Below, piece after piece: positions 43,970 to 45,232 of a stretch of 64,000 nucleotides of DNA. Each line of letters starts with the position of its first letter. Within the stretch, counting starts at the first letter, position 1. Under the pieces are notes generated by a model that was not told where the DNA came from, ran no database searches, and was given only the letters and a program-made list of their open reading frames with translations. The stretch comes from Pseudomonadales bacterium (GTDB lineage: Bacteria > Pseudomonadota > Gammaproteobacteria > Pseudomonadales > JAHRWD01), in NCBI GenBank assembly GCA_019090315.1, contig JAHRWD010000087.1:35925-99924 (forward strand), read 5' to 3'. A program made the position numbers and the translations under genes.

Positions 43970-45232
43970 ATGTCACCAACGATCCCTTCAAAGACCAACA
44001 CGATGTATATTTCGACATTGTGCTGTGATACTCGAACCAGGAAGGTTTTTGAAATATTCTTTCGCCGAATGTGTAACGGCCGGTTCTGCTTAACAGACGA
44101 TCATCGACGTGCCGACGCAACCATAATTGATATGGATATTTACGGCGCCCTGGAGAAGCATATCGAGTTTCGAAAAAGCTTCAGGAATCAGCCCCTTGTC
44201 GCCCTGTCCACAGCAAAAAAGTTACCCAATATACCTCACACTTATAATTTAAAAAAACCACTGAATCACGAACACCTTAAAAAATTACTGGCCAAAATTG
44301 GTAAAGGCTCGATTAGTTCCAGCACCCATACCGGAAACCAAAAGCCAGAAAATGCCTTACCGAAAAAACGACACAACGCTATAGAGAAAAAACCTGTAGA
44401 GAAAAATTCCGCTCCAAATTTTGTGCCCCGAAAACCATCCTCAGCCTCAAATCAAGCGGGAAAACTGCTAGGGGAAGAAAAAACCCATCAATTCGTCGGG
44501 ACACATGACGATATCGACACCTCAAATTCAACAGAGGTAAAGAATGCGTTGTATGATCCAACCCATATGCTCCAGGGCTCGATACATGAGGCTTGCAAAT
44601 TGGCGGAGGAAAAAAACACTACAATAGAACTGATCTCTTTTGGAATTGGAATTATTATCGACCCACATGCATTCAAAGTTTACACTGTAGTTTCAGATTC
44701 CGTATTACGCCCCCTGTGCTTGTTAGAAGACAAAAAAAAGCGCCGGTTTGAAGAACTCGCCTCGTACTCTGACAACGTCTATACGGAAAACTCAAAGCCT
44801 AACGCAAAACTAATTGAGTGGGATATTGATGCGTTTCTCTGGAAAATCAGCCTGTGGTCCTCTCGAGGTAGAGTTCCAAAAGGTACAAATTTTCAAAGCA
44901 AAGTGTATCTCTCTCAGTGGCCAAATCTAACACGATTAGAAATGATCCCGCACGCATTACAAATATCTGCACTTCTAACACAAAAACCGCGTCAACTCAG
45001 CAAAATTTCGAAGCAACTTGGGTTGCCTCAACGTTATGTGTTTGCGTTCTATAGTGCCTGCAAAAGTTTAGGTATCGCCAACGAATGTAGGCGGCAGAGT
45101 GACCATATTTTTGAAGAACCCCCTGTACGGACTGAACGTGCCGATAGACTGGAATCGACCACTTCAATCATGAAGAAAATCATTTTCCGACTCACCAGAA
45201 GAAACCCTTCTGATCAAAAACATAGCGCTTGA
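43970..45232 (+). CDS. Receiver-like domain protein with K/P/S-rich linker and C-terminal HTH-like segment
   Basis: The N-terminus has a beta-alpha pattern like a receiver (YISTLCCD...ATIIDMDIYG...PLVALS...NLKKPLNHEHLKKLL). A low-complexity linker follows (GNQKPENALPKKRHNAIEKKPVEKNSAPNFVPRKPSSAS). The C-terminal segment is RQLSKISKQLGLPQRYVFAFYSACKSLGIA. The start is uncertain: 43886 GTG, 43970 ATG or 44003 ATG. Confidence 0.55.
   Translation: MSPTIPSKTNTMYISTLCCDTRTRKVFEIFFRRMCNGRFCLTDDHRRADATIIDMDIYGALEKHIEFRKSFRNQPLVALSTAKKLPNIPHTYNLKKPLNHEHLKKLLAKIGKGSISSSTHTGNQKPENALPKKRHNAIEKKPVEKNSAPNFVPRKPSSASNQAGKLLGEEKTHQFVGTHDDIDTSNSTEVKNALYDPTHMLQGSIHEACKLAEEKNTTIELISFGIGIIIDPHAFKVYTVVSDSVLRPLCLLEDKKKRRFEELASYSDNVYTENSKPNAKLIEWDIDAFLWKISLWSSRGRVPKGTNFQSKVYLSQWPNLTRLEMIPHALQISALLTQKPRQLSKISKQLGLPQRYVFAFYSACKSLGIANECRRQSDHIFEEPPVRTERADRLESTTSIMKKIIFRLTRRNPSDQKHSA

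Follow-up and report, generated by a model that had tools for sequence, protein, structure and literature searches.

The prokaryotic MglA-like GTPases were divided into five groups by Wuichet & Søgaard-Andersen in 2014 (Genome Biol Evol 7:57; PMC4316618). Group 3, from beta- and gammaproteobacteria, has GTPases of about 178 amino acids (aa) in the gene neighbourhood DUF>MglA>MglB>MglB (Table S2 of that paper), and its modules include those of Neisseria, Xanthomonas, Stenotrophomonas and Acinetobacter. According to that survey, neither the N- nor the C-terminal region of the DUF (domain of unknown function) protein has a Pfam match, and a variable linker lies between the two. Phyre2 predicted these two ends to be receiver-like and winged-helix-like, respectively, and a transcriptional role was proposed. 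We have analysed a stretch of 64,000 nucleotides from a Pseudomonadales bacterium (contig JAHRWD010000087.1, positions 35,925 to 99,924 of the forward strand), called the window below, and in it an open reading frame (ORF) at 43970..45232 that lies directly upstream of a small GTPase gene. Its product is referred to as the partner protein.

Two other described systems are close enough to be compared. In actinobacterial conservons, CvnC/MfpC, a DUF742 protein encoded just upstream of the GTPase, has been measured to be the guanine nucleotide exchange factor (GEF) of MfpB (PMC11343762), and the conservon (group 2) GTPases share unusual G4/G5 motifs with those of group 3, according to the 2014 survey. 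In Myxococcus xanthus, RomR begins with a canonical receiver (residues 1-116), continues with a long disordered region and closes with a short conserved tail (residues 369-420; bioRxiv 10.1101/2024.02.20.581209).

The genes that define the module in the window are the following.

43970..45232, + strand: complete ORF for the partner protein of the GTPase ("group 3 DUF"), from the ORF list

45257..45790, + strand: group 3 MglA-type small GTPase, 177 aa (Pfam ATP_bind_1, Ras, MMR_HSR1)

46205..46852, + strand: divergent MglB-like protein, first of two MglB, 215 aa (Robl_LC7 weak, E 0.085)

46807..47262, + strand: Roadblock/LC7 MglB homologue, second MglB (Pfam Robl_LC7 E 3.9e-17)

That the partner protein represents the DUF of a gammaproteobacterial group 3 MglA-type module, sharing a transcript with the GTPase and two MglB/Roadblock proteins, is well supported. 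Six ORFs of the same strand follow its gene with gaps of 0-60 nt, the gap to the GTPase gene being 24 nt. From its translation, the GTPase carries the motifs G1 GPVRAGKT, G3 TPGQE, G4 TRTD (no Lys) and G5 DAR, and the G4 and G5 motifs fit the description of groups 2 and 3 in PMC4316618. Each feature that defines the group 3 DUF in that text was found in the partner protein: a position directly upstream of a GTPase with unusual G4/G5, followed by one or two MglB; conserved ends and a variable linker, without Pfam match; a receiver-like N-terminus and a winged-helix-like C-terminus; and a beta-/gammaproteobacterial spread. Peculiar to the present locus are a 131-aa ORF lying between the GTPase gene and the first MglB gene, and the absence of a full-length upstream gene. 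With the architecture published in 2014, the finding is therefore a rediscovery, and the partner protein is a further example of a family known computationally since then. Compared to the description in the accessible part of that paper, what is added here is an alpha/beta middle domain, sequence motifs, a fusion and extra linked genes.

The same module was recognised in other genomes. The GTPase of a group 3 locus of Neisseria gonorrhoeae shares 50-66% identity with that of the window, the two MglBs share 33% and 55% with their counterparts, and the family profile matches three pieces of the DUF (E 1.5e-11, 3.4e-10 and 3.5e-4), whose gene is frameshifted there. The N. gonorrhoeae record L084 (NZ_CP119140.1) bears a 'plasmid' label for a molecule of 2.17 Mb, which is chromosome-size; both its partner gene and its GTPase gene are broken by frame changes, and pseudogenisation or sequencing errors may explain this. 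A scan of 185,579 species genomes returned 205 loci, the best 80 of which are all from gamma- or betaproteobacteria, with Thiodiazotropha, Sedimenticola, Kangiella, Thiomargarita, Dechloromonas and Zoogloea among their genera.

The genomic coupling to the GTPase is a tight one. Among the related loci with enough downstream sequence, 66 of 71 have the GTPase gene directly downstream of the partner gene, and four further loci have the permuted order MglB-MglB-MglA-DUF. In some 25 of the listed loci a DUF and a GTPase were found and MglB was not detected, some of the contigs ending soon past the GTPase gene; the pair thus seems to form the core of the cassette. In one family member, P0237 (563 aa), a single ORF encodes the partner protein fused to a GTPase (40% identity to the GTPase of the window, E 4e-39). 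As the fusion is identical on six contigs, with three places shown (L088 4001-5692, L089 and L090) that correspond to three JGI samples, it is not an assembly error. The fused GTPase has a degenerate G3 (MTRKGRF) and G5 (DCR), and no MglB was called in the ~4 kb shown downstream. Taken together, the synteny and the natural fusion tie the partner protein functionally to the adjacent GTPase. A preliminary description of this DNA, made by a model from the sequence, had considered the protein a scaffold or GEF-type partner of that GTPase: the partnership holds, while the GEF-type character is an analogy with CvnC/MfpC only.

The ORF is a genuine gene, since its homologues are abundant. A word-indexed search yielded 139 of them at E<=1e-3, all 360-450 aa long and named 'hypothetical'. 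The cluster representatives that reach the same threshold in an exhaustive profile search number at least 2,349, 998 of them with E<=1e-30. Two members, P0030 and P0041 (QNL62_04895 and QNL62_04905), are paralogues encoded two genes apart on one 47,490-bp contig. Three candidate starts exist for the ORF ending at 45232 (+), namely GTG 43886, ATG 43970 and ATG 44003, and residues are numbered here from ATG 44003 (409-aa product). In homologues ~7-17 residues stand ahead of the conserved 'ISTLG' strand, compared to 13 for a start at 43970 and 2 for a start at 44003. GTG 43886 would place 39 more residues before M44003, hence 41 before 'ISTLG'; it was rejected, and on this comparison is an unlikely start codon. 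No clear Shine-Dalgarno sequence was seen ahead of any of the three starts, and a promoter/terminator scan was uninformative, promoter-like sites being fewer than in shuffled sequences. The identical protein of a Pseudomonadales metagenome-assembled genome (P0001, KUG72_10650, NCBI) is annotated from Met44 (window 44132) with a length of 366 aa, which means that receiver-like strands 1-3, including the conserved Asp43, are omitted from it.

The AlphaFold model, for which 112 family members were used, has a mean predicted local distance difference test score (pLDDT) of 84.6 and shows four parts: a receiver-like domain, a disordered linker, an alpha/beta domain and a winged-helix-like helix-turn-helix (HTH). 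Pfam and NCBIfam scans of the partner protein and 31 relatives gave nothing at threshold. Conservation is expressed below as column counts over 112 diverse family sequences. The parts and their main motifs are located as follows.

44003..44302, + strand: atypical receiver-like domain, residues 1-100, b1-a1-b2-b3-a3-b4-b5-a5 (AlphaFold, Foldseek, conservation)

44303..44497, + strand: variable disordered K/S/N/P-rich linker, residues 101-165 (pLDDT, composition)

44498..44899, + strand: conserved alpha/beta domain, residues ~166-299 (pLDDT 84-98)

44840..44887, + strand: signature motif WKISLWSSRGRVPKGT, with W280 and G289 invariant and R290 in 108/112 (column counts, 112 sequences)

44900..45085, + strand: winged-helix-like HTH, residues 300-361 (secondary structure, pLDDT >90)

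44918-44935, + strand: invariant WPNLTR motif, within the winged-helix-like HTH (conservation)

44990-45079, + strand: segment R330-A359, designated as HTH in the preliminary description (AlphaFold model)

45167..45196, + strand: conserved basic amphipathic C-terminal helix, residues 389-398, consensus RSxLxKLLxxL (model)

The compact alpha/beta domain made by residues 1-100 has a pLDDT of 92-97, and receivers rank top for it in a Foldseek search of the PDB: 3nhm gives E 3.6e-4 and a template modelling (TM) score of 0.65 on the target, and other matches are CheY, PorX, MicA and the CikA-PsR pseudo-receiver (target TM 0.55-0.65, root mean square deviation (rmsd) ~4 A). D43, within IIDMD, closes strand 3 and is Asp in 103/112 sequences and Asn in 9/112; D45 is conserved in 108/112. 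Position 69, S69 here, closes strand 4 and is Ser or Thr in 104/112, and K85-P86 comes after strand 5 (K85 in 110/112, P86 in 112/112). The phospho-acceptor Asp, the Ser/Thr and the Lys positions of receivers are all conserved in the family. The acidic pair that binds metal after strand 1 was not found: it is represented by the single position D9, Asp in 72/112 only. The model has neither helix 2 nor helix 4. Response_reg (PF00072) does not match the partner protein and matches 1 of 31 members, at E 0.042, and a sequence-profile search of the PDB with the full-length family profile gave one receiver, at E 0.31. An atypical receiver had been proposed in the preliminary description, with IIDMD at the phospho-acceptor strand, KP near the domain end and a first acidic pocket cut to one D, and all of these points were borne out; alignment to the Response_reg hidden Markov model (HMM), which it had put forward as a check, gave no match for the partner protein. 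Two tandem receiver-like domains precede the linker in members P0129 and P0130.

The linker has a pLDDT <50 over residues 111-146, and its 65 aa include 10 K, 8 S, 6 N and 6 P. It is ~50-65 aa long here, and varies in the family from 24 to 106 aa, with a median of 68. A low-complexity linker had indeed been noticed, at a length of ~90 aa that is overstated because the folded alpha/beta domain (~166-299) was overlooked. No structural relative of that domain was detectable: the best Foldseek match of the C-terminal model to the PDB had E 0.57, and a PDB sequence-profile search with the C-terminal half gave no match. PCNA-like and SycE-like Foldseek matches of the C-terminal model were rejected, having a probability <=0.1 and rmsd >10 A.

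In the C-terminal half, conservation over the 112 members peaks at W280, G289, W306-P307-N308, R311, L339 and helix 3, YVFAFYSA, which is near-invariant and strongly hydrophobic in this diverse set. The segment R330-A359 consists of a helix (332-339), a turn, a second helix (343-356) and a strand (359-361), that is, it extends from helix 2 to the strand after helix 3; as a fold element the HTH tail of the preliminary description is thus confirmed, inside a winged-helix-like unit of pLDDT >90. Foldseek gave weak winged-helix matches only (8jj9 with probability 0.80, 9h4q_T with 0.66, and 2yu3). In the C-terminal helix, L394 and L397 are nearly invariant. A 124-aa ORF on the megaplasmid of Ralstonia solanacearum (L087 3108-3482) lies directly upstream of an MglA-like GTPase gene and has insertion sequence (IS) elements upstream. 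In a local search it matches only the WPNLTR/winged-helix part of the family (E 2e-7), and it represents either what is left of a truncated gene or an independent module the size of CvnC.

The most probable role of the partner protein, at about 45% by our estimate, is to regulate the adjacent GTPase under the control of its receiver, perhaps as exchange factor. In such a mechanism, the folded C-terminal module (alpha/beta domain, winged-helix-like unit and basic terminal helix) would bind the adjacent GTPase and set its nucleotide state, most plausibly as a GEF, or else as a stabiliser of the GTP form, and this action would oppose that of the MglB-type GTPase-activating proteins (GAPs) encoded downstream. 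The degenerate receiver, by way of the flexible linker, would gate the activity, either through D43 phosphorylation or through phosphorylation-independent contacts, and the partner protein would fill the place that a histidine kinase and CvnC have in actinobacterial conservons. A GEF is suggested because the operon has GAP candidates and no other GEF candidate, because CvnC/MfpC, encoded just upstream of a group 2 GTPase, has GEF activity (PMC11343762), and because the natural fusion to a GTPase exists. Across a very large family helix 3 and the motifs near it hardly vary, which points to a conserved protein partner. Gating by the receiver is proposed because D43, S/T69 and K85-P86 are conserved, and because some members have tandem receiver-like domains.

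CvnC/MfpC and the partner protein have in common a gene immediately upstream of that of an MglA-type GTPase, a winged-helix-like unit with 'LP' ahead of an invariant hydrophobic helix 3, an invariant GR motif ~26-29 residues before the first helix, and a conserved C-terminal 'LLxxLxxL' helix. They differ in that DUF742 proteins are ~120 aa long, single-module and acidic, whereas the partner protein adds a receiver, a linker and an alpha/beta domain; also, the histidine kinase is absent from its cassette. Profiles were compared by HHalign with DUF742 proteins taken from a Streptomyces conservon. The terminal helix and all three helices of the winged helix fall in register in the alignment, as do the invariant GR motifs of both families when it is extended, and the score of 20.3 beats 200/200 column shuffles as well as the reversed control.

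Several results weigh against a receiver-gated regulator of the GTPase. The HHalign likeness to DUF742 is weak (probability 1.8-8%, P 0.004-0.02), and with larger alignments the score was 18.6, compared to a maximum of 22.3 for 100 shuffles. Hmmsearch between the family and DUF742, run in both directions, found nothing (E>=0.1 in tiny databases), and the DUF742 proteins are acidic overall (-2.9), as opposed to the basic winged helix and tail found here. The receiver-winged-helix layout, with an Arg conserved where helix 3 begins, also suits a DNA-binding output, Asn occupies the phospho-acceptor position in 9/112 sequences, and a conserved histidine kinase nearby was not found among the related loci. 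Literature searches by locus tag and topic returned no experimental study of a group 3 DUF, nor, in the literature searched, any report of binding, exchange or phosphorylation for a family member.

Membership in the DUF742/CvnC family was rejected, as PF05331 has no match in 31 members even at E<=10, hmmsearch was negative and the HHalign probability is 8% at most; for the same reasons the resemblance of the tail to the HTH of DUF742/CvnC proteins, which had been pointed out earlier, is not significant. Two candidate bridges between the families were also rejected: the Ralstonia 124-aa ORF matches the family's own winged-helix module only, and a Deinococcus 240-aa ORF is matched by both families only at E 0.02-0.1. 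Remote homology to DUF742 is possible from the profile alignments. That the C-terminal module might be a very divergent CvnC/MfpC homologue and the missing group 3 MglA exchange factor, fused to a degenerate receiver and an alpha/beta domain, seems to us rather doubtful.

It is also somewhat unlikely, in our opinion, that the partner protein is an output transcription factor: an atypical response regulator that would bind DNA through its winged helix, with this binding modulated by the GTPase/MglB switch or by receiver phosphorylation, so that the module would control gene expression. Such a role was suggested in the 2014 paper (PMC4316618), and a receiver-like N-terminus with a winged-helix-like C-terminus is classic response-regulator logic. 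The charges agree with it, the winged-helix region having a net charge of +2.7 +/- 1.7 in the family and the tail +4.5; a basic residue stands in 88% of members at the position of R344, where helix 3 starts, and in 75% at that of R364, just past this helix. Single family members have weak matches to HTH_20 (E 0.063) and MarR_2 (E 0.15), but no DNA-binding HTH family was matched at threshold and the model lacks a beta-hairpin wing. A near-invariant, strongly hydrophobic helix 3 would be expected in a protein interface or in a buried position sooner than in a recognition helix, which has to follow varying operators, and the existence of a GTPase fusion and the lack of a conserved cognate kinase nearby also argue against this alternative. 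OmpR/PhoB-type regulators share with it the succession of a receiver and a winged-helix-like unit, with the phospho-acceptor Asp, the Ser/Thr and the Lys conserved, but a ~130-aa unrelated alpha/beta domain and the linker intervene in the partner protein, its receiver is without helices 2 and 4 and the acidic pair, and it has no partner kinase. Membership in this class was rejected, neither Response_reg nor Trans_reg_C giving a match (Pfam, NCBIfam). Given the winged-helix charge, the conserved Arg and the 2014 proposal, the earlier statement that the protein acts as a GTPase partner rather than a transcription factor is not established.

A scaffold or localisation factor of the RomR kind, which would neither bind DNA nor catalyse exchange but recruit the GTPase or a separate small GEF to a cellular site, being targeted to a pole or membrane by its linker and basic amphipathic helix, is improbable. 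RomR is likewise of ~420 aa, its N-terminal receiver precedes a long stretch of disorder, and its partners are an MglA GTPase and an MglB GAP; the terminal helix of the partner protein is conserved, basic and amphipathic, and a protein with a TPR-like tail, encoded upstream in 47/77 loci, could be an anchoring partner. However, the receiver of RomR is canonical, whereas the partner protein fails the Pfam receiver model, ends in a large, well-folded and highly conserved module of ~240 aa instead of a short tail, and has a gene that adjoins that of the GTPase. In the RomR system exchange activity resides in a separate protein, RomX, and the RomR gene is not beside mglA (PMC4316618); no RomX-like small gene is conserved in the present cassette. 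RomR membership was rejected on account of the non-canonical receiver, the folded C-terminus and the absence of such a gene. The 'RomR-like' architecture of the preliminary description therefore stands for the receiver and the disordered linker and fails for the C-terminus, the likeness being superficial. Quite improbable, lastly, is an effector, or a binder of the guanine nucleotide dissociation inhibitor (GDI) type, which would be a target of the GTP-bound GTPase or lock it in one nucleotide state, and not act upstream of it. The same synteny and fusion speak for it, as they show coupling and not its direction; but a receiver-like domain suggests signal input, not output, and no enzymatic or other output domain is detectable.

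For the group 3 MglA modules, the partner protein is the obvious exchange-factor candidate. Whether it is a receiver-gated GEF or a GTPase-controlled transcription factor, the wiring of widespread Ras-like switches would be explained. Were it a divergent CvnC homologue acting as GEF, a single protein would combine kinase input and GEF, the group 2 and group 3 G-protein systems would be unified, and GEFs based on a winged helix would be defined as a bacterial class. Handles for experiments are the domain boundaries, the invariant motifs GR, WPNLTR and YVFAFYSA, the natural GTPase fusion, and the linked genes for PAS, PhnD-like and TPR-tailed proteins.

Three more ORFs belong to the same-strand series downstream of the partner gene.

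45791..46186, + strand: 131-aa ORF, short relocated relative of the N-terminal half of a 245-260-aa upstream protein (tblastn)

47231..47782, + strand: single-domain PAS protein (Pfam PAS_3, PAS, PAS_9)

47822..48580, + strand: PhnD-like (Phosphonate-bd) binding protein (Pfam PF12974 E 4.7e-33)

The 215-aa MglB-like protein is 33-48% identical to the product of the same-position gene in Neisseria and other loci. For the Roadblock/LC7 protein, the true start is likely ATG 46900, which would give 120 aa, in line with the 120-126 aa of its homologues.

Directly upstream of the partner gene, 47 of the 77 related loci have another recurrent member of the cassette, the fifth (for instance L001 7274-8011 and L002 7138-7920). 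Its product, of ~250 aa, ends in a TPR-like unit that stays below threshold (TPR_19 E 5e-5), and the accessible part of PMC4316618 makes no mention of it. In the window, its usual place (43500-43970) is non-coding. The 131-aa ORF matched L002 in tblastn (26% over 101 aa, E 4.5e-7), and also L043; by eye, it resembles the upstream proteins of L001 and L002. In none of the 80 related loci was this gene seen downstream of the GTPase gene.

The start of the PAS protein is likely ATG 47309. A PAS gene lies downstream in 18 of the 60 loci with room for it, and a PhnD-like gene in 19 of the 60. The pair recurs just past the MglB genes in distant lineages (Methylobacter, Hydrogenophilaceae and Competibacteraceae), and the two proteins may be the sensory input of the module. 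On the opposite strand, the cassette is flanked by two large putative signalling proteins. One is a presumed membrane PAS-GGDEF-EAL protein of 1,242 aa (48637-52365, -); the other, at 40389-42110 (-), reads from its translation as an apparent PP2C-like phosphatase fused to a domain resembling Ser/Thr kinases, with a membrane helix at the C-terminus.

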